Assembly: GCA_944392135.1 (NCBI GenBank)
Contig: CALXVQ010000002.1
Location: 49,825 to 113,824, forward strand
Length of the DNA: 64,000 bases
From: an uncultured Rickettsiales bacterium
Lineage (GTDB): Bacteria > Pseudomonadota > Alphaproteobacteria > Rickettsiales > UBA1997
Direction of reading: 5' to 3'
The notes under the pieces were generated by a model. It searched no databases. It was not told the DNA's origin and saw only the letters and a list, made by a program, of their open reading frames with translations. This document shows, one piece after another, positions 15,012 to 41,132 of the stretch (the first letter of the stretch is position 1; each line of letters opens with the position of its first letter). A program made the translations under genes and the position numbers.

Positions 15012-15049
15012 TTAGGATGAATAACTATTAAAAGAACCCATAGTTATTT

Positions 15050-15310
15050 GAGGTGTAACGACCTTATTGCAGACGGTTCATAATATTTTGAGATTTATTA
15101 TATATGTATATATTTATATTAAGGTACATAAATAAAATAATATTCAAAACCGATAAAAATAACAAAGGTTTTTATTGCTGTTCTCACAGTGATAGAACCG
15201 GAGAGTGTGGCCATGTCCAGAACTCCGGTTTAATTACCTATTGTTTAAAATCCACTGACTGTTCTGCAACAGTATCGTTAACCTCCGGTTCACAGGGTTC
15301 TGAACCTTTT
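15050..15310 (+). promoter_or_regulatory. structured 5' leader of cdiA (candidate attenuator/riboswitch)
   Basis: GC-richer than flanks; AACCGGAG can pair with two CTCCGGTT copies; GGTTCA/TGAACC hairpin followed by T4. Confidence 0.45.
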
Positions 15311-15323
15311 GAGATATTATAAA

Positions 15324-18300
15324 ATGAACATTATAAAAGACAATCAACAGAATAACCAACAGAATAATAAAAATACTAATAAACATACCAATAAACTTAC
15401 AATATTTAAGCTTATAGAATCTTTGAAAACTTTTTTATCAAAAAATTGTATTTTTCTTGCATTTAACAAAAATTTAATATATCATATAATATATGTCTTT
15501 TTAGTTTTTACATCTATAATGCAAATATTTATTTTTAAATATTTTATATTTTTTTGTACAAAATTAAAGCATATTTTTAGTAAATATGTCTTTAGTAGAT
15601 ATATATTTAATAAAGGTAGATTTAATAAGTATCTTATTCTTTTAAAATCTTTTGGTTTTATTAACTTTTTAAATTCTAAAAAACTACTCTTAACAATTCT
15701 TTCCTATATCATAATATACTCCCAAATAACATTCTCCTTCATTATAACTCAATCAGTAGCCCAATCCATTATCTCAATAATATCTATAAAAAGAGCATAC
15801 GCCTTTAATGAGATAGTTCCCCCTCAAAACCTTCAAGATAACCCCATAAACCATATAACTCCCGATAACTCAATCAATATTCCCGGAACCAATAGCAACA
15901 CACACCTTGACCGTACTCAAAACGGCACTCCCGTTGTAAACATAAACAATGCTAATGCTGATGGTATAAGTGCAAACTACTATAAAGACTTTAATGTAAA
16001 TGAACAGAACCTTATATTAAACAATCATAAGGGTGAAAGTGTAAATACCCAATTAGGTGGAGTAGTATATGGCAACCCAAACTTCAATAATTCTAATGGA
16101 AGAGAAGCTGATATAATCCTAAATGAAGTTACCACAAACAGAGTATTCAATATAAATGGCTATATGGAAGTAGCAGGCAAGAGAGCGGATGTAATAATAG
16201 CAAATCCAAATGGTATTATGGTAGGTGGTGCAGGATTTATAAATACCAATAGATTAAGCATGATTACTGGAAAGTCTATTGATGGAACAACCAACTCATC
16301 CTTTAACCAAAACGGAGAACTAAACCCTTTCCTTCTCACCGACACCAACAAAAACCCCAACGCCATAATACAGGTAGTGGGTAGAAATATAACAGACAGT
16401 CAAGGAAGAAATATAGCCTATAATCTAGGTATAGATGCACAGGATGTTAGATATGCAGACCTTGTAAGTAGAGTAGTAAAGATAAATGGAAATATACACG
16501 GTGGAGATGGAAAGAACAATAAAAACAACATATCAACAGAAGTAAATATTAAAACTGGAAATGACAGAGCAGAATATAATAAAAAAGATGGTTTTAAAAT
16601 AAACAGTAGAGAAACCAAAGACCAATCTAAAAACACCATAAATGACCCACAGGATACAGATAGTACAGAAGAAGCCACTAAACCCGAATTCGCCATAGAC
16701 TCCACAGCCTTTGGCGGTATCTATGCAGGCAGAATCAACTTCATAGCCACAGAAGAAGGAGTTGGAGTTAGAACTAGAAGCGACCTTGTAGCAAGCACCG
16801 ATGATTTAAACTTTGATGTAAATGGAAATATTATACTTGAAGAAGAAGGGAGTTTGTATGCAAAGAACAATATAAACCTAAATAATAAAAACAATAATAG
16901 CAGTGAATCCAACAACCAGAACACCAACAGACAAATAGTAAATAACTCCTACATAGTTTCAGAAAATAACATAAATATAAACACAAATGAATTTATAAAT
17001 AGCGATGCAAATGCAAACACGAATCCCAACATCAAAAAACCATTAGTCTTTGCTGCAAACAATATAAATATTCAAGCGGACATAGCGGATAACTCAAATA
17101 CATTGATTGAAACAAACACAAACAACAATGAAACAGATATAAACAACAATAAAACAGACACAAACAACAATAATAATAACAACAGCAATTACTCCGGCAT
17201 AATCAGCAACAATGGAACAATAAATTTAAACATATCAAATACATTGAATAATAACAATGGAAATATACTTGGTAAAAATGTAAATATAAAATATATCTCA
17301 CCCATAGATAAAAAAAGCACTGCCCAACAGCAATTTCAAATTCAAACCAAATCACAAACTCAAAAATTATCAGATAAATCAATAAACCAAACAATAGTTC
17401 AATCAACAACCCAAACAGCAGACCAAACCACAGCACCATCTCTTCCAATATCAAATTATGGTGGAAACATTGTGAGTAATGATGATATAACAATAGATAT
17501 ATTGGCAGATTACATTATAACAGGAACAATATTCTCAAAGAATGGCAATGTAGACATAAATGCAAAGGATATAATAAACCTAAGTGATGTAATAGGTGGA
17601 AATAATATAACATTCACGTCCAACAATGGAAACATCTACAACGGAAGTGAAACAAATTCAAATGCAAATATAATTGCAATGAATGATGTAATATTTAATA
17701 TATTGAAGCAAGAAAATGATACTGGCAATCTCTACAACTACGGCAAAATCTCAGCAGGAAACAACATAGAAATAAATGCAGAAGACAGTGTCTATAATGG
17801 TCTAGCTACTGGAAGCAATGCAACCATCACAGCCAACAACAGCCTAACCATTACCGCAAACAACAGAATAATAAACAAAGGCTATATTCAAGCAACAGGA
17901 CTTACAGACCAAACCACAAGCAAAAAAATAGATGGAACGGGTAATTTAACATTAACCACAAAGGCAGAGATAAATAGTGATTATGAGCTAGGAAATAATA
18001 CTGCCAATGCAAATGCAAATACAAACACTAACCTTGATGATCTAAATAATAAAATCAACGGCAATGAAGATAAAACCCTATCGCCAGAAGTTCAATCTAA
18101 ATTTGACAATCTAAATAGTATAACCGATACAAATGAGCTATATGATCTAATACCACAGCTTAAAACAGAAGAACAATATTATCTTGTTAAAAACAGAATA
18201 CGAATATTAGCAATTAAAGAAACCCTAAATGATCTTGATGAACTTTATACATTTAATGAAGAGGACTGGAAAGATAAATCAGATGAAGAAATAAAAGAAC

Positions 18301-21300
18301 AGCTTCAAGGAATCTTTGGCAATAATTATGATGAAGAATTAGATAACAGTATAAATGGTGCATACAGCAATTATTTATCTCAAAGGGAAACAGAAATTGA
18401 TAATTTAATTGAACAACAGCTCATCAGAAAGCAAGAGGCAGAAGATAATAGCGAAGAATTTAATGAAACCCTATTGGACAAAAACAAACTAATGGCAGAA
18501 GCAGAGACAGAAGCCAATGCAAAGAAATTAGAAAAAATAAAAGATGAAATGGATTCTGAAAAGTCTAAGGTAAATAGATATCTAACCGACCTAAACAATA
18601 GCAACTGGGATTCCCTAACCAATGGACAGATTAATGAGAACCTTCAGGATATACTAAACAACAACTACATTGCTCAAAACTGGTCCATACCAGAATATCA
18701 AGCTGTTGATAATATAACACCTATTACAAACGAATATCTAGGAAGCTTAAGAATAAATGATAAAGACCTAAACGACCAAAATAAAAAAAATAAAATGGAG
18801 CAAACCGGTATACACAACTATGGAAGAATCTATTCAAATAACGATATGGAATTAAATTCAAATAGTGTACTCCATAATAATAAAGGAGCATTGATATATT
18901 CAAACAACAACATAAATTTCAACATAAACAAAGTTCTTTTTAACAACGAGAATGCACTAGGACAGGGAATATTCGCAAACAATGATATTAACATAAGAGG
19001 CTATTGTGATAAAAATGATACAGCATGCCAAACCAACATAGATAAATACAGCCAACACCCCTCCCTTGAAAAGCTGATAAACTATGATGGAAGAATAGAG
19101 GCAAATAACAATATAGACATAAAAAGCAATGAAGTAATAAACTATGGAAGCGACAGCATAGATTTAAGCAAAGTTGATACGGAAATCAAACCCATATACG
19201 ACTATTACTACACAACAAAAAGTGGATTCAGAACAAAAAAAACCTACATAACCAAAGAAGAATACGAAAGCAGAATAGCAAGTGGAAACAACAAAGATAA
19301 TTACGGCAGAACAATCACACTCGGCAAAACTTTCAAATGGTATGGAGTAGAAGAAACACCAGAGCTATTGCAGGCATATGGAACAAACTATAACTTCATT
19401 CAAAATGCAGGGCTATACCAGACAGTTCTAAAAGCCTACGACACCGCCTACTCAAAGGTTATATCAAATGAATCTGTTATACAAAGCAACAATGGAAACA
19501 TAAACATAAAAGCAAACAATACCACAAACTACAACACTGTATTATTCTCAAAGAATGATATGGCGATAGATACTAAAAACCTTCTAAACAAAAACCTAGA
19601 ATTCAATGTAAATGCAAACCAGTACTACCAATACCACGGCAAGAAAAAAAAATGGACAGGCCATGCAAAGGAATACTATGATGAATGGACTAGCCATGTA
19701 GTTTTAAACATAAAAGGCAGTAAAACAGCAAAGATACTGGCAGGAAATGATTTAGTAATATCAGCCAATGCAATAGGCAATGGGACAGCACAATCAAATT
19801 CAGACTATTCAAATAATTCAAATAGATTACCCTACACCCAACAGACAACACCACAAACCACAATTGAGGACCTGCTATCCAGCGGCATACTAAACCCGCT
19901 TGACAGCACACAGCTCCCACAGGGCAACTACGGCATATTCAGACAACCGCAGAACCCAAACTCAAATTATCTATTTGAAACAGATCCCACACTAATTGAT
20001 ACAAACAGGTTTTTAGGAAGTAAATACTTCATGAACAGACTAGGACTAGATCCAGACACAATAGATTTAAAATTTCTAGGCGACAGTTATTTTGAACACG
20101 AACTCATCAGAAAAGCCATAGAACAGCAAAGCCTATCAACAAACACCCATTTAGACCCACAACAAATAAAACAGCAAATAGACAACCTCTACAACTCTAT
20201 GACACAGGAAAAGGCACAACAGCTAAACCTAACCATAGGAGAACCACTAACAGAACAGCAAAGAGCACAGCTTACAGAAGACACCATATGGTATGTCAAA
20301 CAGGAAGTACAACTACCAAACGGCGAAACCATAGAATCATTAGTTCCACAAATATTCTATTGCAACACAACACTTGCAAGACTAGAACAAGAAAGAATAT
20401 TGAACACAGCGGGAAGCATGCTTGCCGGCACAAATGTAATATTACAAACAAAGCCAAACAGCACAGACAACATAAACAATACAGACAACACAGACGACAC
20501 CATCTTCAACACCATCCTATCCAACAGCGGCACCATAACCGCCAAAAACACATTAGCCATAACAGGCTTTGACACTATATCCAACGTAACCTCATCCATA
20601 AGAAACGATGACATAAACTCACTGTCACAGGACAAATTCAACAACCAAGCCACTCTAACTGCTGGAAATACACTTATTATAGACACAGGAGTTAATGGAA
20701 CTGTAAATAATTTGAGTGGGATGATTGCACTCAACAACACGAATGACAACACTTCATCAACCCAAAACAGTTTATACGACAATCTTCTTTATATAAACAC
20801 CGGGACATTAAACAACATAACATTATCTCAACAGGAAACAGTAGAAAAGCAAACCCACAGCAAAAAGAACGATTACGAATTCAGCAAAACCTCAACCTAT
20901 ATTGGAGACACAGCTGCAATACAATCAAGCAACAACAATTCAAATATAATAATAAATGCCAATGAGGACATAAACATACTAGGGGGAGACATAAAAACAA
21001 CAATAAAAGAACAAGACAACTCCAACATAGTCCTAAATGCAGGCAACAACATCAACATAGCTGCAATACAGGACTATGAATACCAAAGACAATACATGAG
21101 GCGAAAAGGTGGAACATTTGGCGAAACCTTAACCAAAGAGAACATAGACCAATCAGTTACCAATATACAATCCAATATATCAGCAGGAAACAATCTATCC
21201 ATAGCCACAGGAAATGATCTTAACTCCATAGGAACTAACTTTACTGCAAACAATGGAGATATAGATCTAAATATAAAAAATGATTTAAATCTTTATAATG

Positions 21301-22409
21301 CAATGGACTATGTATATGATTACGATTATACAAAGAGAGAATCATTTGACCTAGCATCCGCCATAGTTAATGTAGCAAGTGCAGTTGCAGTTGGAGCATT
21401 AACAGGAGGAGCAGGTGCAGCAGTTATGGCAGGAATAAGTGCAACAAGTAATGCAGCCGGTATGACCAAAGGATCAATAGACATAGAAACAAATTATGAT
21501 GAAACAATAGTTGCAAATAATATAACAGGAAATAATATTAATATAAATACAAATAATAGCCTCAACTCCATAAGTACAAAAATGAATACAGAAAACACCA
21601 TAAATTATAATATAGGAGGTAATTCATTTATTAGTGAGGCACAAGAAAGACATGAATATAAAATAACACATGAGGAATTCGGTGGAAATATAGGTAGGGC
21701 AGTATTAGGTGGTGCTATCACTGGTGCTATGAGCGGTTTAGGATTAAATGGAGGCAAATACTTAGGTAATTTAGCTAGTAGCTCTATTACTGATGGCATT
21801 TTAAATGCTAGCATTAATGGGGCAGTTCTTACTTCTGTAAATGCATATAGTTCATCAATAGGATCTGCGATGTCTCAAACTATATTAAATGGAGGAAGCT
21901 TTAAAGATGTATTAAAAGCAGGAAGAGATAGCTCAATAAGTCGTAATACATTAATGAATACTATGATTGGTGCCGTTATTGGTGCTACTGGCGGAGCTTT
22001 GGGTAAAGTTATTAAGGATGTAAAAGCTAAATATAATAGTTCTCTAACACAAGAACAAATACAAAATAAAATGACTGAAATACCAGTTGGGGAATCTAAT
22101 TTAAAGATTGGTAATCTAAATAATAATAAAGTCGGTATAAATTCTTATATTAAAGATGGAAAAATAATACAGGCTGGAACACTTAATATAAATGTTAATT
22201 ATTTTACAAGTAATCAAAACATATTTTTTAAGGCTTTTAATTTTTTACCTGGTTCGCCATCTTTTGCAGATTTTCACGATGCTTTGAATATAAGTGGAAT
22301 TTGGAATCAATTATCTATCCCATATGCTTATATGATAAGTCAATTTAATGCCCTATATCCATATTATCCATCACTTATATATTTTAACAATACGAAGGAA
22401 AACAAATGA
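15324..22409 (+). CDS. cdiA: TpsA/CdiA-like filamentous haemagglutinin exoprotein with C-terminal toxin domain
   Basis: TPS domain (NPNF, IIANPNGI), FHA repeats, YLFETDP...FLGS.YF region, Gly zipper, compositionally distinct C-terminus; start uncertain (TTG 15309/ATG 15324). Confidence 0.9.
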   Translation: MNIIKDNQQNNQQNNKNTNKHTNKLTIFKLIESLKTFLSKNCIFLAFNKNLIYHIIYVFLVFTSIMQIFIFKYFIFFCTKLKHIFSKYVFSRYIFNKGRFNKYLILLKSFGFINFLNSKKLLLTILSYIIIYSQITFSFIITQSVAQSIISIISIKRAYAFNEIVPPQNLQDNPINHITPDNSINIPGTNSNTHLDRTQNGTPVVNINNANADGISANYYKDFNVNEQNLILNNHKGESVNTQLGGVVYGNPNFNNSNGREADIILNEVTTNRVFNINGYMEVAGKRADVIIANPNGIMVGGAGFINTNRLSMITGKSIDGTTNSSFNQNGELNPFLLTDTNKNPNAIIQVVGRNITDSQGRNIAYNLGIDAQDVRYADLVSRVVKINGNIHGGDGKNNKNNISTEVNIKTGNDRAEYNKKDGFKINSRETKDQSKNTINDPQDTDSTEEATKPEFAIDSTAFGGIYAGRINFIATEEGVGVRTRSDLVASTDDLNFDVNGNIILEEEGSLYAKNNINLNNKNNNSSESNNQNTNRQIVNNSYIVSENNININTNEFINSDANANTNPNIKKPLVFAANNINIQADIADNSNTLIETNTNNNETDINNNKTDTNNNNNNNSNYSGIISNNGTINLNISNTLNNNNGNILGKNVNIKYISPIDKKSTAQQQFQIQTKSQTQKLSDKSINQTIVQSTTQTADQTTAPSLPISNYGGNIVSNDDITIDILADYIITGTIFSKNGNVDINAKDIINLSDVIGGNNITFTSNNGNIYNGSETNSNANIIAMNDVIFNILKQENDTGNLYNYGKISAGNNIEINAEDSVYNGLATGSNATITANNSLTITANNRIINKGYIQATGLTDQTTSKKIDGTGNLTLTTKAEINSDYELGNNTANANANTNTNLDDLNNKINGNEDKTLSPEVQSKFDNLNSITDTNELYDLIPQLKTEEQYYLVKNRIRILAIKETLNDLDELYTFNEEDWKDKSDEEIKEQLQGIFGNNYDEELDNSINGAYSNYLSQRETEIDNLIEQQLIRKQEAEDNSEEFNETLLDKNKLMAEAETEANAKKLEKIKDEMDSEKSKVNRYLTDLNNSNWDSLTNGQINENLQDILNNNYIAQNWSIPEYQAVDNITPITNEYLGSLRINDKDLNDQNKKNKMEQTGIHNYGRIYSNNDMELNSNSVLHNNKGALIYSNNNINFNINKVLFNNENALGQGIFANNDINIRGYCDKNDTACQTNIDKYSQHPSLEKLINYDGRIEANNNIDIKSNEVINYGSDSIDLSKVDTEIKPIYDYYYTTKSGFRTKKTYITKEEYESRIASGNNKDNYGRTITLGKTFKWYGVEETPELLQAYGTNYNFIQNAGLYQTVLKAYDTAYSKVISNESVIQSNNGNINIKANNTTNYNTVLFSKNDMAIDTKNLLNKNLEFNVNANQYYQYHGKKKKWTGHAKEYYDEWTSHVVLNIKGSKTAKILAGNDLVISANAIGNGTAQSNSDYSNNSNRLPYTQQTTPQTTIEDLLSSGILNPLDSTQLPQGNYGIFRQPQNPNSNYLFETDPTLIDTNRFLGSKYFMNRLGLDPDTIDLKFLGDSYFEHELIRKAIEQQSLSTNTHLDPQQIKQQIDNLYNSMTQEKAQQLNLTIGEPLTEQQRAQLTEDTIWYVKQEVQLPNGETIESLVPQIFYCNTTLARLEQERILNTAGSMLAGTNVILQTKPNSTDNINNTDNTDDTIFNTILSNSGTITAKNTLAITGFDTISNVTSSIRNDDINSLSQDKFNNQATLTAGNTLIIDTGVNGTVNNLSGMIALNNTNDNTSSTQNSLYDNLLYINTGTLNNITLSQQETVEKQTHSKKNDYEFSKTSTYIGDTAAIQSSNNNSNIIINANEDINILGGDIKTTIKEQDNSNIVLNAGNNINIAAIQDYEYQRQYMRRKGGTFGETLTKENIDQSVTNIQSNISAGNNLSIATGNDLNSIGTNFTANNGDIDLNIKNDLNLYNAMDYVYDYDYTKRESFDLASAIVNVASAVAVGALTGGAGAAVMAGISATSNAAGMTKGSIDIETNYDETIVANNITGNNININTNNSLNSISTKMNTENTINYNIGGNSFISEAQERHEYKITHEEFGGNIGRAVLGGAITGAMSGLGLNGGKYLGNLASSSITDGILNASINGAVLTSVNAYSSSIGSAMSQTILNGGSFKDVLKAGRDSSISRNTLMNTMIGAVIGATGGALGKVIKDVKAKYNSSLTQEQIQNKMTEIPVGESNLKIGNLNNNKVGINSYIKDGKIIQAGTLNINVNYFTSNQNIFFKAFNFLPGSPSFADFHDALNISGIWNQLSIPYAYMISQFNALYPYYPSLIYFNNTKENK

Positions 22410-22780
22410 AAGAGTTAAAAAAATTTAAATTTATTATAATTTTGCTATTATTGGCAGGCTGTAATGGTTGGACGAAAACGTGGTTTTATGAAGAATATAA
22501 TAATAACATTCTTTCAAATGAGATAAGAAAAATAGATTGGAAGCAGAACGGTAGTGAATATAAACAGTATTGTGTTTATTCGTTATCATATTTTTTACCA
22601 TTAAATTTTTGGAATGTAAAATTTTCCAATGAACAGTACGTAAAAAAAGCCATTAAAGATCTAAATAAAGATGGATTTAAAGGAGATAATATGAAGAATA
22701 TTTATATTAATAGTGAAGGTTTAGGAACACCTTTATATTCTTATTATTGTATAAAAATAAGTGGAGAAATAGTTGAATAA
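22406..22780 (+). CDS. candidate immunity lipoprotein 1 (TRL-like)
   Basis: Lipobox LAGC; ATGA overlap with cdiA stop; C...C-I-K-I-S-G end resembling TRL-like lipoproteins. Confidence 0.7.
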   Translation: MKELKKFKFIIILLLLAGCNGWTKTWFYEEYNNNILSNEIRKIDWKQNGSEYKQYCVYSLSYFLPLNFWNVKFSNEQYVKKAIKDLNKDGFKGDNMKNIYINSEGLGTPLYSYYCIKISGEIVE

Positions 22781-25700
22781 TATATCTATTATATCCATAA
22801 ATACAATAAAACCTCTCACCCCAACCCCTATCCCTCAAGAGGCGAGGGACTCTGACTTAGCAACAAACATTAACCTCAACATAGGCGGCAACATATCCAT
22901 AACAGAAACAGAGGAAAGACATGAATATCAAAAAACCCATGACACTTGGGGCGGAGATCTCGGTATGGCAGCATTGGGTGGAGCTATGACTGGACTTGCC
23001 GGTGGTTTAGGCATGGGTGCAGGAAATATGATTGGCGGTACTTTAAGTGGACTAGCCTTGTCAGGAGCATCAGCCTTTGGCTCTTCTAATGTAGGTGCAG
23101 TAATTTCAGAAAACAGGAAAGGAACATCAAACGGAACTTATACAACAAATCAAATAGGCAGTGATATAATAGCCTTAAATGATATTAATATAACCACAGA
23201 CAATAATTTAAATATAGTTGGAAGTGATTTGACATCCCTAAACAACACAACACTAAACTCAAACAATGGCAGTGTAAACATAACAACAGCAGTAGAAACC
23301 CAAACAACAGAACAAACCAAAACAAAAACCAACTGGGGAGGAATAGACTTTACACATACGAATAGTAGTGTGGGGGTTGGAGCAAGTATAGAAAGAAATA
23401 CCACAAGCAGCACAGCCACAACCCAATATGCAAAAAGCAGCAATATTCAAAGTGGAAACAATATTGCCATAAGTAGTGGCAATAATAATTCAAATAACAG
23501 TACAGACACTAATACCAAAAACAACAACCAGCAACAGGACATCAACATCATAGGTTCAAATATCTTGGCAGAAAACGACATAAAACTCAATGCAAATGGA
23601 GATAATGGAAATATTAAGATTATAAGTCAAGAACTTCTTCAAAACAAACTTGACAAGCAAAAGACTGAGGCTATTACGGCGAGTGTAGGGATAACAAACT
23701 ATTGGGCTAAAACCGCCGATCAAACACATAATCTGATAGACAATTCAAAAGGCGGTGCAAGAGACAGCAAAGAGGGCTATACAAACACATTCTTTGATTT
23801 AGGCAATATTGGCATATCAGTAATGAATGCTGCCGGCAGTCCATTAGGCTTTGGTATAAGTGCAGACATAGGCTATAATCTTATAGAAACAGAGACAGCC
23901 CAGAACAATACCTACAATCAAGAAAGTTCTATTGTATCAAACAAAGGCAGCATAGACTTAAATGCAGAGAACGATATAAATATCAAAGGTGCAGATATAA
24001 TTGCAAACAACGATGCACAAATAACTGCACAGAATGGCAATATAAACATTGATACAATAGAAGACTATAACTATAAATACCAGCATGCTGAAAGAAGCGG
24101 CGGAACATTTGGAACTACAAAAACTATGGATTCAATAGATGAAAGCAACAAAAACATTGGAAGCAATATTGTATCAAACAATGGAAGCCTGCACCTACAG
24201 GCAAATAGTTCAAACAACAGCACAAACAAAAACCTACAAACAGCAGGAAACATAAATATAAAAGGCTCAAATATAATGTCTGAAACTGGCGCAAATCTTG
24301 TGGCTGAAAATGATGTGAATGTATTTAGCAGTATTGATGCCAATAGAACCTACAGAAAAGTAGAAGAAGACAATAAATTTACAGGTGGAGAACTTGATAT
24401 AAATGAGAATATCACCAATACCAACAACTCCTCAAACATAATTTCAAACAATGGAGATCTAAACATAATATCAGGCAGAAATACAAACATAGTAGCAAGC
24501 AATCTGGTAACTGATGAAAGCGGAGACATAAACATTCTTGCTGGCTATATTGTAGACAAAAATACTGGAAATATAGTTCAAAAAACAGATAAAGATGGAA
24601 ACATAACAACAGGCTCTATAAACATCCTATCAGCCCAAGATCTTGAGAAGAACTATTCAAAGCACGAAGAATGGGGTGGAGTCTTTGACATGCTGACCAA
24701 CTTTGACATAGACTTTGATAAAGGCGGACTAACCCTAAGCACCAGCTACGAAGAAGAACTTGATGAGAACACCACACTTACAAAAACCGCAAAAACATCA
24801 AACCTAGAAGCTAGCAACGGAAATATAAACCTAAATGCTACAGAAAATATATTAAGTGTTGGTACTCAAATATATGCGAATAAAGACATAAACCTCAGTG
24901 CTGGCTACACTGAAACTAAAACAGATGAAGATGGAACCACAACTCAAATCAAACACAATGGCAACATAATTCTAGCATCAGCAGACAATAGTCAAACAAT
25001 AGACTCAAAACACGAAGAAACTACAGTAACTATTGGAGTTAAGGTTGGCAATAGCTTTGTGGATGCGGGATATGCAGTGGATGCAGTAGTAAAAGCCGGC
25101 GAAGAAGTAAAACATGCAAAGGATGAACTAAGTAGAATGAAAAAACTAAGAGACGAAGGCAAGGCAAGTGATAATGCCGTAAAGGATGCAGAAGTAAATC
25201 TTGCAATGGCTACTGCTAACCTTGCTAATTCAACACTTGGTATGGCAACTGCCATGGGAAGTGCAGCCGTAAGTACTCCAACAGGTGGTTTTTATGGAAG
25301 TGCATTCACAAACTATGATACGACCACCACAACATCAAACGAACAATCAACTTGGCAAACACAGGGCAATCTCATATCAAATAGCGGCAATATAAATTTT
25401 AACACCACAAATGATATGACACAGGAAGGAACTAACCTATATGCAAGCAATGATAATGGAACAGGAACAATAAACTACAATATAGGAAATGATTTAACAA
25501 TACAAGCAAGTAAAGATACCTACAAGGCGAATTCAAAAACAGAAAACACAAATGTTAATGCAAGCATAGGTACAAACGGATTTAGTATTGGCGGCGGTGG
25601 TGGCAGCTCAAAGAGTAGAACAGATAGCACGACCTATAACAATAGTGAAGTGCTTGCAAATAACATCAATATAAACACAGAAAACAATGCAAGCATAAAA

Positions 25701-27341
25701 GGTGCCAATATAGAAGCTACAAATGATATTAATATGAACATAGGCAACAACCTCAACATAGAGTCATTACAGGATACATATTATAGCAAATCAAACTCAA
25801 ACAATGCAAATATAGGAATAGGAAGCAGCAGTATAAGCGGAGGCTATAATACAGAAAAAAGTTATACAGATAGTAGTTGGGTAAACAATCAAACAAGCAT
25901 TATAGCAGATAACAAAGTAGATATAAAAGTAGGCACAAAAACTGATGATAATGGAAACAATATAGCAGAAGGAAACACAAACATAAAAGGTGCTTTAATA
26001 GCTTCAAACTCTGATAATTTAAATTTAGAGACAAACACACTAACCTATCAAGATATAAAAGACACCTACTACACAGAAACAAAAGGATCTGGCTTCAATA
26101 CCACAATAGGAACAGATCCAGACAAAGGCAAAGCAAACATAGCACCTATGGGAAGCACCACTATAACAATGAAAGATACAGGAGAAGAAAAAGAACAGAT
26201 TACAAAATCTACAATAGGCAATGGAAACATTACAATAGGCGGACAAACTCAACCGGAAGACAGTAGTATGCTTGCTGGACTTAACAGGAATGTGACAGAC
26301 AGCCAAGAGATTACAAAAGATATGATTACAGGTGCATTGGATGGAAGTGTAACAATAGACAATAGACTATTATTTGGCTTCATAGAGCAAAATGTCTATG
26401 AAAGAGATGAAAATGGCAAAATAATAAGAGATAAAGACGGAAAAGCAATAGTAAAAACAGATGCGAATGGCAATCCAATAACTACTAATGGTTATCAGAG
26501 TATATATAGTGATGTGAGAAACTTTGGAACAAATACAGCAGGAGCATTAGTTGGTGCAATGTCTGAAGCAGAAGAAATCGCAGAATTTGGAAGAGAAAAT
26601 TTAGAAAAAGGTGGAAAAATTGGTATTGTAGCATCACAGCCATTTAGTGCTGTTGAAGGATTCTTTGATTATTTTGTTGAAAATGATAGTAAGGCTTATC
26701 TATACGATAAAGATGGTGGTTATAAAGAAACAAATAATATAAAAGATGGTAAAAATTATTATACAAATGGTATAATGAATACAGTTAATAAGGATGTAAA
26801 AGAATATTTATCTAACAATCAAGATTCAGTAGTTCGCTATAATCCAACAAGTGGATTTATTGGCGATTTAATGGAATCAACACTTGGAAAGTTATTGAAT
26901 TGGAATGGCTTGACTGCTCAATTGGGTTCTATGAATAGAATTATAGCAAATGATTTAACCGAAAGAAAAGATATGCAATATTCAAGCAATAATTTCCATA
27001 GTCAAGGAACAATTAATGGAACTGGAGCTATGAACATATTAGCTAAAAATGATATAAAATTAAATGATACTCAAAGTTTAAATGCAAAAGGTCCTGCTGT
27101 TTATAATAGAACTTGGGATAATACAGCTTCACAAGTTTTAGATAGAAAAACCTATGTTGCAGCCGATGATGGTGGACTTGGTAAAAAGGGAGATGTTTTA
27201 CATTCAAATATTACATATTCACATAATGAAAAAGACCCAGTAAGGTATTTAACAGCTCCAAGAACACCATTAGATATTTTTATTGGTCTTTATTATGGTG
27301 CGACAAATATGAAGGAACATAATATTGGTAGTTATAAATAA
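22773..27341 (+). CDS. orphan/displaced C-terminal half of CdiA (FHA-2 repeats plus lipase-like toxin)
   Basis: No signal peptide or TPS domain; haemagglutinin repeats; C-terminal YTNGIMNT, YNPT...DLME, FHSQG alpha/beta-hydrolase motif. Confidence 0.8.
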   Translation: MNNISIISINTIKPLTPTPIPQEARDSDLATNINLNIGGNISITETEERHEYQKTHDTWGGDLGMAALGGAMTGLAGGLGMGAGNMIGGTLSGLALSGASAFGSSNVGAVISENRKGTSNGTYTTNQIGSDIIALNDINITTDNNLNIVGSDLTSLNNTTLNSNNGSVNITTAVETQTTEQTKTKTNWGGIDFTHTNSSVGVGASIERNTTSSTATTQYAKSSNIQSGNNIAISSGNNNSNNSTDTNTKNNNQQQDINIIGSNILAENDIKLNANGDNGNIKIISQELLQNKLDKQKTEAITASVGITNYWAKTADQTHNLIDNSKGGARDSKEGYTNTFFDLGNIGISVMNAAGSPLGFGISADIGYNLIETETAQNNTYNQESSIVSNKGSIDLNAENDINIKGADIIANNDAQITAQNGNINIDTIEDYNYKYQHAERSGGTFGTTKTMDSIDESNKNIGSNIVSNNGSLHLQANSSNNSTNKNLQTAGNINIKGSNIMSETGANLVAENDVNVFSSIDANRTYRKVEEDNKFTGGELDINENITNTNNSSNIISNNGDLNIISGRNTNIVASNLVTDESGDINILAGYIVDKNTGNIVQKTDKDGNITTGSINILSAQDLEKNYSKHEEWGGVFDMLTNFDIDFDKGGLTLSTSYEEELDENTTLTKTAKTSNLEASNGNINLNATENILSVGTQIYANKDINLSAGYTETKTDEDGTTTQIKHNGNIILASADNSQTIDSKHEETTVTIGVKVGNSFVDAGYAVDAVVKAGEEVKHAKDELSRMKKLRDEGKASDNAVKDAEVNLAMATANLANSTLGMATAMGSAAVSTPTGGFYGSAFTNYDTTTTTSNEQSTWQTQGNLISNSGNINFNTTNDMTQEGTNLYASNDNGTGTINYNIGNDLTIQASKDTYKANSKTENTNVNASIGTNGFSIGGGGGSSKSRTDSTTYNNSEVLANNININTENNASIKGANIEATNDINMNIGNNLNIESLQDTYYSKSNSNNANIGIGSSSISGGYNTEKSYTDSSWVNNQTSIIADNKVDIKVGTKTDDNGNNIAEGNTNIKGALIASNSDNLNLETNTLTYQDIKDTYYTETKGSGFNTTIGTDPDKGKANIAPMGSTTITMKDTGEEKEQITKSTIGNGNITIGGQTQPEDSSMLAGLNRNVTDSQEITKDMITGALDGSVTIDNRLLFGFIEQNVYERDENGKIIRDKDGKAIVKTDANGNPITTNGYQSIYSDVRNFGTNTAGALVGAMSEAEEIAEFGRENLEKGGKIGIVASQPFSAVEGFFDYFVENDSKAYLYDKDGGYKETNNIKDGKNYYTNGIMNTVNKDVKEYLSNNQDSVVRYNPTSGFIGDLMESTLGKLLNWNGLTAQLGSMNRIIANDLTERKDMQYSSNNFHSQGTINGTGAMNILAKNDIKLNDTQSLNAKGPAVYNRTWDNTASQVLDRKTYVAADDGGLGKKGDVLHSNITYSHNEKDPVRYLTAPRTPLDIFIGLYYGATNMKEHNIGSYK
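22812..22850. repeat. REP-like palindrome at cassette junction
   Basis: CCTCTCACCCCAACCCCTATCCCTCAAGAGGCGAGGGA resembles the CCCTCACCCCAACCCTCTCCC...GAGAGGG repeat family. Confidence 0.5.
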
Positions 27342-27356
27342 TGAAATGGGAAAAGT

Positions 27357-28055
27357 ATGAAAAATATGAAAAAATATATTATTTTAAAAATCTTTGGTTT
27401 TTTATTAGTTGTCTTTATAATTTCGTCTTGTACTTATAGAGATTTTAAGCACGAATTTTTTGCTGGATATTTTGTCAAAGATTATAATTTTGAATGGGAA
27501 GGCAAACAATCTAGAAAGTTAAATACAAATGATAGATATTGTTTATATTATAATGGTAGAAATGAGAAGGATTTTAAAATTAAAGGCTATGATATGGAAA
27601 AAGCGAATCAGCAGTTAATAGATATTTTAAAAAATAAAGGTTTAAAAATAAAAGAAGAAGTTTTTAATTTTACAAATAGTAAAGCAGAAAAGGATGATAT
27701 AGAAAATAGTATAAAAAAACGAGAAATTGATAATAATTTTGAAAATTGCGATTATTTATTGACATACGAAATTGGAACACTTGAAAGATTTAAAGAAAGT
27801 TATATTGACATTCGCATATATAATATTGCTACAGATGATATGGTTTCATCATATACTGTTTATGGAAAAAAATCAACACTTATTTCTTATGTATTAATAA
27901 AACAACAAGAATTTATAAATAACGCTATTGATGAATTATTTAAATATCAAAATACTGAACAAGATAAAATGAAATTTAAATCTTTTGAATGTACTTCTAG
28001 TGGTTGTAGAACAATAAAATGTATTGGCGATAAGTGTGAGATAATAAATAATTAA
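27357..28055 (+). CDS. candidate immunity lipoprotein 2
   Basis: Lipobox ISSC; follows lipase-like toxin; C-terminal ECTSSGC. Confidence 0.65.
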   Translation: MKNMKKYIILKIFGFLLVVFIISSCTYRDFKHEFFAGYFVKDYNFEWEGKQSRKLNTNDRYCLYYNGRNEKDFKIKGYDMEKANQQLIDILKNKGLKIKEEVFNFTNSKAEKDDIENSIKKREIDNNFENCDYLLTYEIGTLERFKESYIDIRIYNIATDDMVSSYTVYGKKSTLISYVLIKQQEFINNAIDELFKYQNTEQDKMKFKSFECTSSGCRTIKCIGDKCEIINN

Positions 28056-28062
28056 ATAATTT

Positions 28063-28635
28063 ATGAAAAAATACATTATTTTAATTTTGACTATTTTAAG
28101 CTTGATATTTATAAATAAAATAGCTTTTGCTAATAAAGAATTTAATAAACAAACATTACCGATGCAGGATAAAATAGAAAAAGAACAAGACAATAATAAA
28201 ACTAATGATATTGCTAAAGAAAAAGAATTTGCAAAATATGCAGATTATCTGGATGATATGAGACAAGGTAAAAAATGTGAAGGTTATGATTTTGATCCAG
28301 AAAAGATTGTATTGATAAAGATTGTAAATCCAGAATACTATATTGAGTTAAGCAATGGTAAAAAATTTAGAATTGAAGCTTGGATGGGTGATTGCGGTTC
28401 AATAGATTTAAAAGGCAAAGATGGCTATAAACAACTACCAGATAGTTGTAAAATTTTAATAGGATCTACTTGTATTTCTCCGCCACCTTCTAATTGTAAA
28501 AAATTAATAGGAACGACTTGTTGGGACGAGAAAGTCAAACAGGATTATCAAGTGTTTCAATGGGAATGCACCAATAAAGGTTGTGAAAGAATGACAAACT
28601 TTACAGAATATGATCTGGATTTTTTTGAAGAGTAA
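28063..28635 (+). CDS. candidate orphan immunity protein (exported, Cys-rich)
   Basis: Signal peptide ending AFA; ECTNKGC; similar to 29918-30556. Confidence 0.6.
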   Translation: MKKYIILILTILSLIFINKIAFANKEFNKQTLPMQDKIEKEQDNNKTNDIAKEKEFAKYADYLDDMRQGKKCEGYDFDPEKIVLIKIVNPEYYIELSNGKKFRIEAWMGDCGSIDLKGKDGYKQLPDSCKILIGSTCISPPPSNCKKLIGTTCWDEKVKQDYQVFQWECTNKGCERMTNFTEYDLDFFEE

Positions 28636-28652
28636 AATAATATTATGTCAAT

Positions 28653-29921
28653 ATGTCAGTTGATGCAGAAGAAAGGATACATAACACAATAGAAAGCGAA
28701 GCAGTCGCAAAAAATATGGCAAACAGAGAAGTAGGTTATTACAATGCAATGGCATTTCTAACAGGTGGAAAGGGAATAGCTAGTTCTAATACATCAAATT
28801 CAAATAATGGTGGATTGAATGGTCAAATGCAATCAAACTGGAATGAGAAGTATAATACTAATACAAACCAGCTGTTGAATCAAAATACAATACTTGCAAA
28901 CAATGTAAAAAGTGAAGATAAGTTATATAGCACACACTTTGATAAAAATGGAAAAGCTGAATTTATAAATGATGGCGATTATAATGCATACAGAAAAAAT
29001 GAAGATGGTACTTTAAATTATGAAAATCAAATAACATATGCTGAAGGCTTTAATTTGAATATTGCAGATGATAAAAAAGAAGCATTTGAAGATCAAATGA
29101 AAACTAATGAAGTGCAGATGGATTTATTAAGACTGTTACTTATGGATTCAAATAAATCAATTACAGAAAACACTAAAGATCTAAATAGCCTTGAAACTCA
29201 ATATTTACTTGGTTTAAAAACACCAGATGGAACTTATTATTATAGTTGGAATAAATTTCTTGACAAGGACGGTACTAGAAGTAAAACAAACGAAGCATTA
29301 TCCAATGGAGCAGACGATTTTAGTTTGAATTATTTATATACAAATGACATATGGAAAACCATAGCCGACAATTCAAGTGGTATTTCCTATCCAACACAAA
29401 AAACAATGGGGGCTTTTGATATAAAGATTGATGAAAGTAGAACTATTATAAATCCAGCAGTTGGTCAAGAAGTTAGAACAAAAGAGAATGGAACTTGTAG
29501 GACTCCGGGATGTGGCGAAAAAGGTTCTTTGAGACCTGGTCATACGCATCAAGGAACTGATATTCTATTGAATGAAGGGGATTATGTCATAGCACCTATG
29601 GATGGAAAATTATATTATACTACGAGTAGTAAAGATAAAACTAAAGCATTAAACTCATTAGCTGTAGCTAATGATGATATAAGAATACTAATGCTATATG
29701 TTGATAAGAAATCTAATATAAAAATAAAGAAAAATGGTACAGATGTGGAAAAAGGTGGAGTAATTGGCAAAGGAACTTCTAATTCTGAATTTATAAGAGT
29801 TTACGGAAAAGATACTGCCCAGCATACACATGTGGAACAACAGAATGCAAACGATAGACTTGATAAAAAAGATATTCAAGGTGTATTATTTCCAAATCAA
29901 CAAAGGGAGTTAAAAAAATGA
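28653..29921 (+). CDS. orphan toxin module with C-terminal M23-family peptidase
   Basis: HQGTD, VIAPMDG, VEKGGVIG and HTHVE motifs; no signal peptide. Confidence 0.75.
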   Translation: MSVDAEERIHNTIESEAVAKNMANREVGYYNAMAFLTGGKGIASSNTSNSNNGGLNGQMQSNWNEKYNTNTNQLLNQNTILANNVKSEDKLYSTHFDKNGKAEFINDGDYNAYRKNEDGTLNYENQITYAEGFNLNIADDKKEAFEDQMKTNEVQMDLLRLLLMDSNKSITENTKDLNSLETQYLLGLKTPDGTYYYSWNKFLDKDGTRSKTNEALSNGADDFSLNYLYTNDIWKTIADNSSGISYPTQKTMGAFDIKIDESRTIINPAVGQEVRTKENGTCRTPGCGEKGSLRPGHTHQGTDILLNEGDYVIAPMDGKLYYTTSSKDKTKALNSLAVANDDIRILMLYVDKKSNIKIKKNGTDVEKGGVIGKGTSNSEFIRVYGKDTAQHTHVEQQNANDRLDKKDIQGVLFPNQQRELKK

Positions 29922-30556
29922 TTAAAATGAAATTATATATTGTCACAATATTTACTTTTTTTTATTGTGTTATTGGCTATTGTTTTGAATGGGAAAAATT
30001 AGAAAAAGTTGAAAAAAATTCAAAAATTCAAAGAGAAATTATTGGATATATGAGAACTTTTTATGTTGATGAAACAAAATACCAAGAAGTTAAAAATCAA
30101 GCTGATAATTTTAAAAATACAAAGTATATGGTATATGAAAATTTTGCACATAAAGATAATAATAAACTAACAGCTTGTAATCTAATAAATTTTAATCAAA
30201 ATTATATTACTGGGATATATTTAAAGAGAATGCCAAAAAATAAAGATATTAATTTGTATGATAATTTAACTTATGAAGAATCATATATTACATACAAAGA
30301 TGGACAAAAAATAAATATTAGAGATGCAGAATTTTTTAAATGTGGCGACCTAGATATAAAAGATTGCAATAAAACTGGAAATGATGGCATTGAATGTTTA
30401 AAACAGCTACCAAGTGAATGCGAATTTATTGTTTCTTCAAACAATGGCTCTTTTTGTATAGATTTAAAAAATGACGAAACAGCTTTAATTGAATATGGAT
30501 GTGATAGCAATGGATGCGCAGAATTAAATAATTTTGTTGAATATATTTATGATTAA
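29918..30556 (+). CDS. candidate immunity protein for the M23 toxin (exported, Cys-rich)
   Basis: ATGA overlap with toxin stop; signal peptide; GCDSNGC. Confidence 0.65.
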   Translation: MIKMKLYIVTIFTFFYCVIGYCFEWEKLEKVEKNSKIQREIIGYMRTFYVDETKYQEVKNQADNFKNTKYMVYENFAHKDNNKLTACNLINFNQNYITGIYLKRMPKNKDINLYDNLTYEESYITYKDGQKINIRDAEFFKCGDLDIKDCNKTGNDGIECLKQLPSECEFIVSSNNGSFCIDLKNDETALIEYGCDSNGCAELNNFVEYIYD

Positions 30557-30737
30557 TGTAGTTAGTTATTGATTTTTGGAGCTTTAAAGTTGTCAAAATA
30601 TTAGTAAAATTATTATTTTATGGCATAATATAGTTTATGGAAATATATTTAGATAGATATATTCATATATAATAAATAAAACATTAACTAGTGAAAAATA
30701 TATAATATATTTATTTTTAAAAAATAGTATAATAAAA

Positions 30738-33269
30738 ATGATTTTATATAAAATGCAAAGCATAAATTTCAAAAACACTAAAACACATACAATTGCAAAA
30801 CATCAAACACTATTGCAAATATTTATAGTAATACTCACACTTTTTGTTATTGTTTTATCAACCACCTCGCCCGCCTATGCCATCACCCCCCAAGAGCAGC
30901 AACTCCTCAACCAGCAGCTAATCCTTCAACAGCAGCAGGAGCAGAGAAGACAACAAGAACAGAATAGATTGCAGATAGATGATATTGAAAATATAAGAAG
31001 AACTAGGGTTGGAAGTGATGGTATTGAAAGTATTGATGGAAATGATGGAGTTGGTGGTGGTGCTAATGGTAATGAGGCTGGTGGTTCTTCATCTGCTTCA
31101 AGTTGTATTAAATTCAATAGAATAGAATTAATCGGAAATACTATATATTCAACAAAATATTTACAGAGAAAAGTATTAAATAAATATATAGATAGATGTA
31201 TCAATAAAAAGAATATAGATGATATAACTAATTCTTTAATGAAGATATATATTGATGATGGCTATGCTACAACTAGGATATATTTTGATATAGGTAAACT
31301 TAAATCAGAAAATATATTTATATTTGTGATTGATGAAGGAAAGGTTAATGATATTATATTGAATAATATATATCCAGAAAAGAAGAGCAACAAGAAATTG
31401 AATAAAAAAGAAGAAAGTAAAAAAGAAAGCAAGAATACAGAAAATAAAAAAGATAAAGATAAAAACAAAGATAAAACAAATAAAGAACACAATACAATAA
31501 ACAAAGAACAGAACAAACCAAAGGAAGATAAAACTTCCTTTCTTGATAAATACAAATCATTTCGTCTAAAATCTCAAACCTTCTTCGCATTTCCATTTCT
31601 TAAAGGCAAAGAGTTTAATTTAAGAGATTTTGAACAGGGACTTGATCAGTTGAATAGATTACAGAGTAATAATGCCACACTTGATATAAGAGCAGTACAA
31701 GAAATTAAAAATGAAGAATTAGGAATTAAGAATGAGCCTTCGGCAGAGAATCAAAGAGACAAAAATAAATCAAACAAAGCTAAATCCAACAAATCCACCT
31801 TAACCAAAGCCAAACCCAACAAATCCAAAACCTCTTCCAAAATTAGCGATGATCTAATATCGGCATCAGACATAATAATCAACAATCAAAAATCTTCCCC
31901 CATATCTTTCAGTATAGGACTTGATAACAGCGGCAATAAAAGCACAGGAGAAAATCTTGCTAATATAAATTTAAGTGTAGACAATCTAATAGGTATAGAT
32001 GATAACATATATTTGAAATATACACAGGATACAGATACAGAGAATAATAAAAGATACAATAAATCATTTTACAGCAATCTATCATTTCCATTGGGCTATT
32101 GGACATTCAATACAAGTATAAGCTATTCAAAATATCTCACTACCATTAACGGATACTATACAAGCTTCCATACAAGCGGAAATACATTAACACAAATGTA
32201 TAATATAGACAGAGTATTATTTAGAAGACAACTATTTAAAATAAATGCCGGAACAAATCTAACAGTAAGAGATACAGAAAGCTATATTAGAAATTTAAAG
32301 AGTATTACAGGAAGTAGAAAATCATCAAATATCAGTCTATACCTAAACAACATTATATACACAAAACTAGGAACAATAATTATAAAGCCATCATATCAAA
32401 AAGGGCTAGACTGGTTTAATTCAAAAAAAGATGATAGCCATAACCTAATGCTAAGAACAGAACCAAAACTACAATATGATATGGTTAAACTATATGTATA
32501 TTACAACACAAGAATAAATCTACCATTGTTTACAAAGACACAGGTAATAGATCCAAATACAAACCAACCAATAATGGTGGAAAGAGAAATTAAAAATGTA
32601 AAATTAAAAATTAAAAATGAAAAGTTAAATAAAAAAATTAAAAATAAGCCTTCGGCAGAGAATCAAAGAATAAAAAACAAAGAAAGCAACAAAGAACCAA
32701 CAACCCAACTAGTCCTACTCAAAGTCAGAAACAAAATCAATCTCAACTACACCCTAACATTTGACAGCCAATACTCTTGGGACACACTATACGGAACAGA
32801 TCAATTCAGTATCGGTGGAGAATACACAGTCAGAGGATTTAGAGAAGGAACCATAAGCGGAGACAATGGCTACTACATAAGAAACGATCTATCAATAAAT
32901 CTACAACAGCTATTCCCAAAATTTATACTGAATTCAAAAATTATGAGCTATGGAAGCAATACAAATATAAGCATAAAAGGTAAAAATTTAAGACTATTCC
33001 TAAACGACTTTCTAAGCAAAGCATACATCTCCATATTCTACGACTACGGCTATGTACAAGACAAATACAGTGATGATAGCGACACAATCTACAACTCCCA
33101 AAGCGGATACATGGCAGGCGCAGGCATTGCATTAAACTACTACGGACAATACCTAAACTGGTCCTTAACCTACGCAAAGGCGCTACATGCACCTAACTAT
33201 CTACAATCAAGAGATGGCATAAAAAAAGAAGGACATAGTGTGTATTGGAGGATTGGGGGAAGGTTTTGA
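30738..33269 (+). CDS. cdiB: TpsB/CdiB (ShlB/FhaC/HecB) outer-membrane transporter
   Basis: POTRA motifs YIDDGYATTR and LRDFEQGLDQLNRL; LDNSG, IGGEYTVRGF, C-terminal Phe; carries Lys-rich insertions. Confidence 0.93.
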   Translation: MILYKMQSINFKNTKTHTIAKHQTLLQIFIVILTLFVIVLSTTSPAYAITPQEQQLLNQQLILQQQQEQRRQQEQNRLQIDDIENIRRTRVGSDGIESIDGNDGVGGGANGNEAGGSSSASSCIKFNRIELIGNTIYSTKYLQRKVLNKYIDRCINKKNIDDITNSLMKIYIDDGYATTRIYFDIGKLKSENIFIFVIDEGKVNDIILNNIYPEKKSNKKLNKKEESKKESKNTENKKDKDKNKDKTNKEHNTINKEQNKPKEDKTSFLDKYKSFRLKSQTFFAFPFLKGKEFNLRDFEQGLDQLNRLQSNNATLDIRAVQEIKNEELGIKNEPSAENQRDKNKSNKAKSNKSTLTKAKPNKSKTSSKISDDLISASDIIINNQKSSPISFSIGLDNSGNKSTGENLANINLSVDNLIGIDDNIYLKYTQDTDTENNKRYNKSFYSNLSFPLGYWTFNTSISYSKYLTTINGYYTSFHTSGNTLTQMYNIDRVLFRRQLFKINAGTNLTVRDTESYIRNLKSITGSRKSSNISLYLNNIIYTKLGTIIIKPSYQKGLDWFNSKKDDSHNLMLRTEPKLQYDMVKLYVYYNTRINLPLFTKTQVIDPNTNQPIMVEREIKNVKLKIKNEKLNKKIKNKPSAENQRIKNKESNKEPTTQLVLLKVRNKINLNYTLTFDSQYSWDTLYGTDQFSIGGEYTVRGFREGTISGDNGYYIRNDLSINLQQLFPKFILNSKIMSYGSNTNISIKGKNLRLFLNDFLSKAYISIFYDYGYVQDKYSDDSDTIYNSQSGYMAGAGIALNYYGQYLNWSLTYAKALHAPNYLQSRDGIKKEGHSVYWRIGGRF

Positions 33270-33275
33270 AAATTG

Positions 33276-41131: not shown

Positions 41132-41132
41132 T

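Follow-up and report, generated by a model that had tools for sequence, protein, structure and literature searches.

Contact-dependent toxin systems are known on genomic islands, plasmids and conjugative elements. Here we describe a locus for the two-partner secretion (TPS) of polymorphic toxins that lies inside an integrated temperate phage of an uncultured Rickettsiales bacterium. The window, i.e. the whole stretch of DNA that was analysed, comprises 64,000 nucleotides of contig CALXVQ010000002.1 in assembly GCA_944392135.1 (G000:C2:49825-113824, G000 being the source genome of 1.19 Mb), and window coordinates are used unless C2 is stated. With moderate confidence, we read the locus as an envelope-directed weapon: a temperate phage integrated at tRNA-Ser(CGA) would carry an operon for TPS-exported polymorphic toxins as its cargo. 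This reading builds on the gene content, the attachment (att) sites, the presence or absence of cargo in the same slot of related prophages, and the pairing of each tip family with an exported small protein, all of which are observed directly.

The closest described systems are those for contact-dependent growth inhibition (CDI). The Burkholderia type, bcpAIOB, was reportedly described by Anderson and colleagues in 2012. Like it, the locus in the window has a TPS exoprotein with a variable tip, a small gene behind each tip and the B gene last; the initial annotation had likened its cdiB-last order to bcpAIOB, and the order found, A-I-orphans-B, which recurs at two other loci (L042 and L065), bears this out. 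In contrast to bcpAIOB, with its Nx(E/Q)LYN motif, cytoplasmic partners and nuclease tips, the motif is missing here, all partners are exported, an alpha/beta-hydrolase, an M23 peptidase and a small domain of no recognised fold form the tips, and the whole is carried by a prophage. With E. coli cdiBAI the locus shares a TpsA/TpsB pair, polymorphic tips, and downstream orphan tip/immunity modules that keep a recombination junction, while it differs in that tpsB comes last, VENN is absent and the immunity candidates have signal peptides or lipoboxes.

A second comparison is with the envelope effectors of type VI secretion systems (T6SS), namely Tle lipases with Tli proteins and peptidoglycan hydrolases with Tai proteins, in which immunity is periplasmic. 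Like these, the locus combines lipase-like and peptidoglycan-hydrolase toxins with exported or lipoprotein immunity candidates, a likeness that implies action in the target periplasm; unlike these, it would rely on type Vb delivery, and no sequence-level membership of a T6SS effector family was found. Extracytoplasmic toxin/antidote pairs are, to our knowledge, well studied for type VI secretion and hardly for type V, and the locus offers three candidate pairs that apparently act outside the cytoplasm. For classical polymorphic toxins, the accessible part of the survey by Zhang et al. (2012, PMC3482391) describes alpha/beta-hydrolase tips (Tox-ABhydrolase-2 and -3); the hydrolase tip here, likewise set on a filamentous-haemagglutinin-type toxin, is likened to them by description and not by profile. 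In that same part of the survey Imm65 is the only lipoprotein immunity family, whereas here every candidate is exported.

Polymorphic toxins of temperate phages are represented by the phage-borne MuF toxins, which are not TPS proteins (Jamet et al. 2017, PMC5576092, in the sections available), and phage WO particles carry a cargo module in a genome of up to 65.7 kb (PMC5062602, likewise in the sections available). Like the MuF phages and WO, the element described here is a temperate phage with toxin-type cargo inside its att sites and behind its late genes. It differs from the former in that a MuF toxin is joined to a head-morphogenesis domain and needs no dedicated secretion machine, whereas this cargo includes its own transporter, and from the latter in that the eukaryotic association module of WO consists of eukaryote-like domains, whereas this element carries a complete bacterial secretion system. 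No eukaryote-like domain was matched in the cargo genes, which match bacterial TPS, haemagglutinin-repeat and M23 families only. The analogy to phage WO that had been drawn at the outset is reasonable, since WO is among the nearest named phage relatives of the element's recombinase, at 37-38% identity.

The initial annotation had placed an 18-kb A-I-orphans-B locus between the lysis/DUF3489 genes and the DUF2924/serine integrase genes, and both the open reading frames (ORFs) and the Pfam matches in the flanks agree with this placement. Eight ORFs on the same (+) strand fill 15309-33269 in the order TpsA1, I1, Orph2, I2, I3, M23 orphan, I4, TpsB, with spacings of -8 to +17 nt and with 181 nt ahead of tpsB. 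The features of the locus are as follows.

15309-22409, + strand: TpsA1, 2366 aa if read from the start of the longest ORF, the true start being uncertain; the sole toxin gene with a secretion domain
15858-16835, + strand: TPS secretion domain of TpsA1 (PF05860)
22005-22406, + strand: CT1, the final ~130 residues of TpsA1, with invariant N, PG and HD residues in the alignment
22406-22780, + strand: I1, 124-aa lipoprotein with lipobox LAGC, immunity candidate for CT1
22773-27341, + strand: Orph2, 1522 aa, no TPS domain and no signal peptide; Fil_haemagg_2, E 6e-36
26661-27338, + strand: CT2, alpha/beta-hydrolase core with the candidate triad Ser1410, Asp1488 and His1516 of Orph2
27357-28055, + strand: I2, 232-aa lipoprotein with lipobox ISSC, immunity candidate for CT2
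28063-28635, + strand: I3, 190-aa exported Cys-rich protein, hydrophobic N-terminus ending in AFA
28653-29921, + strand: M23 orphan, 422 aa, no signal peptide; M23 domain at ~29481-29858
29918-30556, + strand: I4, 212-aa Cys-rich protein, N-terminus hydrophobic; candidate immunity protein against the M23 domain
30738-33269, + strand: TpsB, 843 aa, outer-membrane transporter with ShlB, two POTRA domains and K/N-rich insertions

The secretion machinery has two features of type Vb, namely a TpsA with an N-terminal TPS domain and an Omp85-type TpsB with POTRA domains and a ShlB barrel. In an N-terminal piece of TpsA1 scanned separately, the TPS domain matches PF05860 with 104.7 bits against a cut-off of 33.5 (E 1e-29), and a genome-wide profile search finds this domain as a single copy in the 1.19-Mb genome (E 1.8e-30). 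At its whole length TpsA1 matched no Pfam family, probably because of its Asn-rich composition, and no family was matched by its pieces spanning residues 500-2260. About 175 residues with hydrophobic stretches precede the TPS domain in the longest ORF, of which the start codon is uncertain, and the protein is collinear with full-length TpsA proteins at other loci. TpsB matches ShlB (E 2.8e-71), POTRA_3 (E 9.5e-16) and POTRA_2 (E 4.5e-10) in Pfam. It should also be noted that TpsB exceeds the typical TpsB size by ~250 residues owing to Lys/Asn-rich low-complexity insertions, two of which contain the same short peptide; its relatives range from 573 to 893 aa.

The three C-terminal domains are indeed different from one another, as had been annotated: CT1 has no recognised fold, CT2 is alpha/beta-hydrolase-like and the third is an M23 domain. 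CT1 has 21 representative homologues, and the match is C-terminal or near-C-terminal in each protein longer than ~120 aa, the shorter homologues being fragments of the domain. Among seven homologues scanned, a TPS domain is present in one, a TpsA of 3261 aa, and three more have haemagglutinin repeats; CT1 is a recurrent TpsA tip. The CT1-type end is overlapped or followed by an ORF of 82-104 aa with a lipobox in 6/6 metagenome loci, a count that includes L061 and L062, which carry the same genes. Look-alikes of the CT1 piece in the atlas have DUF637 or PT-VENN at 0.83-0.84, which is a lead only, and sequence searches of the PDB with CT1 and CT2 gave chance-level rows only.

For CT2, 13 homologues were found in a large protein collection. 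Across 14 sequences the Ser of the motif FHSQGT, an Asp and a His hardly vary, and among the 7 closest all three are invariant. Its AlphaFold (AF2) model has a mean pLDDT of 62, with 70-92 in the core, and Foldseek returned weak rows (E ~0.02) among which lipases and cutinases dominate. The best VIA match is the Obc1 hydrolase domain (Z 9.0, rmsd 3.7, 176 aligned), with further matches by this exhaustive aligner to venom phospholipase A1 (Z 8.2), to cutinases (8.1 and 7.6) and to Tle3/Tli3 (Z 5.8); the matches to alpha/beta hydrolases span Z 9.0-7.0, and most of the 50 rows listed are of this kind. CT2 matched no Pfam family, and DUF900 is found on 17% of one cluster of its atlas look-alikes, again a lead only. 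We read CT2 as a lipase/esterase-like alpha/beta-hydrolase.

When genome contigs were scanned with a 7-row CT2 alignment, a lipoprotein or signal-peptide ORF was found behind CT2 in 5/6 genome loci. Viral contigs searched with the CT2 alignment yielded no relative. I2 is homologous to two lipoproteins that stand behind CT2 orphans on contig C12 of a same-genus genome (G004:C12; E 3e-22 and 8e-16). A complex prediction for the CT2 core with I2 scored 0.02 against a mark of 0.32, was made without controls and counts neither way.

Orph2 also records how the locus was assembled. Residues 2098-2190 of TpsA1 and 33-113 of Orph2 are 40-45% identical; the TpsA of L038 aligns collinearly first with TpsA1 1562-2197 and next with Orph2 26-1505, and the full-length TpsA proteins of L041 and L042 align both with the N-terminus of TpsA1 and with Orph2. 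This identifies Orph2 as the displaced 3' portion (1490 codons) of an ancestral tpsA. To judge from these alignments, the ancestral tpsA was cut by a CT1-I1 cassette recombining at a junction segment, EERHEY followed by a Gly-rich stretch, and this motif is present in TpsA1, in Orph2 and in a CT1-type orphan from a metagenome. The label orphan, as first applied, needs one correction: the large orphan is not a short C-terminal cassette, as the orphans of E. coli CDI are, but a displaced gene end.

The M23 orphan matches LECT2, which has the M23 fold, with E 3.7e-5, and it retains both zinc motifs (H299-x3-D303 and H391-x-H393). A signal-peptide ORF stands behind the M23-type ORF in 3/3 other loci (G004:C12, G001:C112 and G006:C53), and M23-type ORFs are longer in the first two of these (624 aa and 500 aa, respectively). 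I3 and I4 are paralogues (30% identity, E 5.5e-8), and the I3 homologue of G004:C12 (45% identity, E 3e-49) sits directly behind the M23-type ORF; on these grounds I3 would be a spare immunity gene and I4 the cognate one, I3 being probably an orphan immunity gene of an M23-associated family. I4 had no match in five genomes reached via CT2 loci, and a literature search on CdiA with an M23 peptidase returned no paper.

Signal peptides and lipoboxes were called with a crude rule-based pattern check, not with a trained predictor. By this check, the claim that all four downstream small proteins carry signal peptides or lipoboxes stands for I1 and I2, which have canonical lipoboxes, and for I3, which has a hydrophobic N-terminus; I4 has a hydrophobic N-terminus as well, and its shortfall is taken up below. 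Three unrelated tips behind a common junction segment, together with tip/partner pairs that recur across loci, qualify the locus as a polymorphic toxin system as Zhang et al. (2012) use the term, the partners being putative immunity proteins.

The TPS locus is enclosed by a prophage, of which the features in the window are as follows.

1-36985, no strand: in-window part of the prophage; whole element 58,176 bp, G000:C2:28634-86809
12897-13283, + strand: endolysin (Peptidase_M15_4, E 1.9e-7), a late backbone gene
13869-14579, - strand: DUF3489 protein, the final backbone gene ahead of the cargo slot
14714-33437, + strand: cargo block, 18.7 kb, 32% of the prophage, absent in the closest related backbone
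33457-35607, - strand: large serine recombinase (integrase) with Resolvase, Recombinase and Zn_ribbon_recom domains
35651-36280, - strand: DUF2924 protein, partner gene of the recombinase (E 7.9e-24)
36980-36985 (C2:86804-86809), no strand: attR core CCGCCA, identical to the tRNA 3' end at attL

The left end of the prophage lies 21 kb ahead of the window, directly behind tRNA-Ser(CGA) (C2:28542-28633 by ARAGORN), and the right end is at window 36985. Homology to G007, a prophage-free genome of the same genus without the recombinase, ends at C2:28639, 6 nt past tRNA-Ser. In G007 the tRNA end CCGCCA runs straight into ~30 nt that are found after the second CCGCCA in G000, and the 30 nt past attR show one mismatch to the post-tRNA sequence of G007. 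Since the tRNA CCGCCA is joined to right-flank sequence in G007, this genome presents the empty site and the prophage is C2:28634-86809. The initial annotation had the locus only apparently inside the prophage; the mapped attL and attR enclose it. A further 10 kb to the right of the integrase, considered as part of the prophage, is ruled out, as att mapping ends the element at 36985.

Between these ends, the contig upstream of the window holds, by Pfam, an HTH gene, replication genes (HTH_36, DnaA_N), three DNA methylases and a head module with a gpA-type large terminase, a lambda-family portal, a ClpP-type protease and a capsid E protein. In the window follow a tail chaperone, a tape measure protein, gp44/gp46/J baseplate proteins, the M15 endolysin and DUF3489, and all backbone modules read as intact ORFs. 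With structural, lysis and integration modules between att sites, and an empty site in a relative, the element is an integrated temperate phage.

A second copy is found in G001, where contig C55 is 99.8% identical to window 31377-36985. Past CCGCCA this contig continues for 42 nt, including a 28-nt stretch 93% identical to the left arm of the phage; this right-end-to-left-end junction is attP-like and could, from its sequence, derive from a circle, a concatemer or tandem copies. On G003:C16 a left arm related to this one adjoins another tRNA-like 3' end (CCA), read by eye as tRNA-Tyr.

The cargo was delimited by comparison with G002:C177, whose DNA is ~80% identical up to window 14713 and resumes at window 33438; the cargo is therefore window 14714-33437. 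Its GC content is 0.33-0.36 (window 16001-26000) versus 0.22-0.26 for host DNA. On G002:C177 the slot measures 1.5 kb. Between DUF3489 and the integrase (L058, 3250-4470) it is occupied by one 406-aa ORF that matches PDC-S01, a PADLOC candidate defence family (E 1e-151), here a candidate defence ATPase. The slot is thus a hot spot for cargo of either kind, defence or attack genes. G005:C110, without TPS genes, carries baseplate, fibre, endolysin (73%), DUF3489 (64%), ~290 bp, integrase (45%) and DUF2924 (39%), and the distance from DUF3489 to the integrase is 0.3-1.7 kb in G005:C110 and G002:C177. In related prophages without cargo the endolysin is 73-81% identical, and relatives keep DUF2924 beside the integrase.

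The cargo recurs beside the integrase elsewhere. On G001:C55, G003:C166 and G005:C51 tpsB is convergent to and beside the integrase, and outside G001 the integrase-linked tpsB shows 56-67% amino-acid identity. G005:C51 has two orphan ORFs and small ORFs ahead of tpsB; one orphan has a clear DUF637 domain, the other a weak, sub-threshold DUF637 match. On G003:C100 an integrase with two stop codons adjoins a tpsB fragment, and on G006:C53 (L070, 1-2986) an M23-type ORF and its signal-peptide partner lie beside an integrase fragment, without tpsB. A 68-aa remnant on the latter contig shares 76% identity with the end of the M23 ORF in the window, and G006:C53 looks, by this similarity, like a decayed copy of the cargo. 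On the strength of these comparisons, the TPS locus is an optional cargo of the prophage.

A parallel TPS locus of the same layout, apparently chromosomal, is found in a same-genus genome (G004:C12, L053, 1-12000, and L039). It runs from TpsA and a lipoprotein through two CT2 orphans, each with a lipoprotein of its own, to an orphan of 948 aa, an M23-type ORF of 624 aa, four small exported ORFs and lastly TpsB; the G004:C12 contig gave no match to the integrase.

Relatives of TpsB were found in 26/61 related genomes searched (own genome included) and in 23/36 same-family genomes searched, while the accessible part of Verhoeve et al. (2022, PMC9111745) describes CdiB-type transporters as scarce in Rickettsiales. 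TpsB matches 4/50,697 phage records, all of them contigs of 230-380 kb under one Acinetobacter phage name, and the TPS domain additionally matches Moraxella phage Mcat25 in this collection. In IMG/VR (2.9 million viral contigs) six TpsB loci were found, all by partial matches: four of the six cover a 41-residue POTRA piece only, and L045, one of the two better ones, abuts a contig end. Literature searches for a mapped prophage carrying a complete TPS/CDI operon found none described. Twelve public runs contain half or more of the sampled words from window 31000-38500; matching runs overall amount to 20 from 7 studies, and the 12 bear the labels chicken gut, gut, bird or plain metagenome, which is a lead only.

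That all three tip families are followed by exported partners, and that the whole is phage-borne, suggests a weapon against the envelope of rival bacteria. In the mechanism we propose, TpsB would move TpsA1 to the cell surface; upon contact with a neighbour, CT1 would cross the target outer membrane and act in the periplasm or on the envelope, and the lipoprotein I1 would shield lysogens. Orph2, with CT2 and I2, and the M23 orphan, with I4 and the spare I3, may be stored alternative tips without a secretion domain of their own, which could recombine onto tpsA1 via the common junction segment (EERHEY and Gly-rich stretch), while their exported partners may guard the lysogen against relatives that deploy such tips. 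As the phage carries both the weapon and its antidotes, lysogeny would give attack and immunity together.

Several results weigh against this proposal. Neither VENN, or its variant [VIL][ED]NN, nor the Burkholderia motif Nx(E/Q)LYN occurs in TpsA1, Orph2 or the M23 ORF, and no Pfam DUF637 or PT-VENN (PF04829) match is found in the TpsA1 pieces scanned. Hence, CdiA-type delivery is an analogy only and the locus is filed in neither CDI subfamily; the CDI label first given to it survives as an analogy of mechanism and lapses as a subfamily assignment. For CT1, no fold is claimed, because its model is poor (pLDDT 62, pTM 0.36) and no Foldseek match was better than E 6. The Peptidase_M23 match of the M23 orphan is marginal (29.0 bits versus a Pfam cut-off of 28.7), and the junction motif at residue 6 of this ORF is a lead only, as the match is short and weak. 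At L038, the exception among the CT2 loci, tpsB stands directly behind CT2 with no small ORF between, and in I4 the crude rule recognises neither a canonical lipobox nor a cleavage site. The junction on G001:C55 may reflect tandem or neighbouring prophages and not a circle, and no RNA run is among the public runs listed as containing the stretch. Finally, the bacterium presumably lives in or on eukaryotes, and the frequency of its contact with bacterial rivals is thus in doubt.

The alternative that survives best is that the element is no longer a transmissible phage; it would then be a TPS island that entered, or arose within, a prophage now oversized for packaging, inherited vertically and spread, if at all, by recombination and not by virions, which we consider possible, albeit doubtful. 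The cargo lifts the phage from ~39.5 kb to 58.2 kb, and with 47% added to a backbone whose terminase, portal and capsid E protein are lambda-like, packaging of the full element is in question, which counts against a mobile weapon and for this alternative. Decay is also seen: on G006:C53 the M23 remnants lie directly beside the integrase with no tpsB, and on G003:C100 the interrupted integrase lies beside the tpsB fragment. However, the backbone modules in the window's own prophage are all intact, the copy in G001 is 99.8% identical and has the right-end-to-left-end junction, and phage WO, in the available sections of PMC5062602, packages 65.7 kb including a cargo module. Moreover, tpsB and integrase stay linked in copies that have diverged to 56-67% amino-acid identity, which indicates long co-travel.

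It is unlikely that the system is instead aimed at the eukaryotic host or serves adhesion, with TpsA1 as an FHA/ShlA-like adhesin or cytolysin, CT2 as a phospholipase against host membranes, and the small exported proteins as accessory or chaperone factors. Such a role would suit the small genome (1.19 Mb), the fact that adhesins and cytolysins are numerous among TPS proteins, and the presence of venom phospholipase A1 as well as lipoprotein and pancreatic lipases among the structures that CT2 matches in fold. Endosymbiont alpha/beta-hydrolase toxin domains without immunity genes are likewise described in the accessible part of Zhang et al. (2012, PMC3482391). Against a host target, the substrate of an M23 peptidase is peptidoglycan, pointing to bacteria; every tip family has its own family of exported small proteins across loci, and the orphan modules share a junction. 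Tip-specific partners and orphan modules with a common junction are hallmarks of self-protection, which argues against host effectors.

That Orph2 and the M23 ORF are themselves translated and either exported alone or handed to TpsB, so that three toxins are deployed together, is highly improbable: both ORFs are intact and tightly packed (gaps to the preceding gene of -8 and +17 nt) and longer M23-type ORFs exist in G004:C12 and G001:C112, but both lack a TPS domain, a signal peptide and a hydrophobic N-terminus, the start of Orph2 falls in a region internal to intact relatives, and the genome has only one TPS domain.

Returning to the phage-borne, envelope-directed weapon, a farther-reaching form of it can be put forward tentatively: a WO-like phage would make its lysogen a contact-dependent killer through periplasm-acting toxins with antidotes in the same cargo, so that phage-free cells are killed and the phage spreads. 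If so, the rule 'be lysogenised or be killed' would let the phage drive its own spread through the population, CT1 would represent a new family of TpsA toxins that are small, act in the periplasm and have lipoproteins dedicated to immunity, and the EERHEY/Gly-rich segment would be a new tip-swapping junction in the role of VENN. Should the phage indeed move the locus, lysogenic conversion would include an interbacterial weapon plus its antidotes, which alters the view of how such weapons spread.

Directly right of attR, and outside the prophage, the host flank is broken relative to G007 by a 107-bp insertion of 51% GC at window 37016-37122 (C2:86840-86946), the final 23 nt of which occur in more than 30 copies genome-wide. 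A type III Druantia defence system follows at window 37675-47135, with DruH of 973 aa (E 5.8e-73) and DruE of 2000 aa (1887 bits). The 973-aa DruH protein had no match in five same-genus genomes, and a 169-aa ORF of this system weakly matches the C-terminal end of DruH, which suggests a split gene. Further on, type I restriction-modification genes (HsdM, a half-size HsdS and a Hypoth_Ymh protein) precede a 315-aa ORF at window 52228-53175 that matches the PADLOC family PD-T4-7 (E 9e-23).

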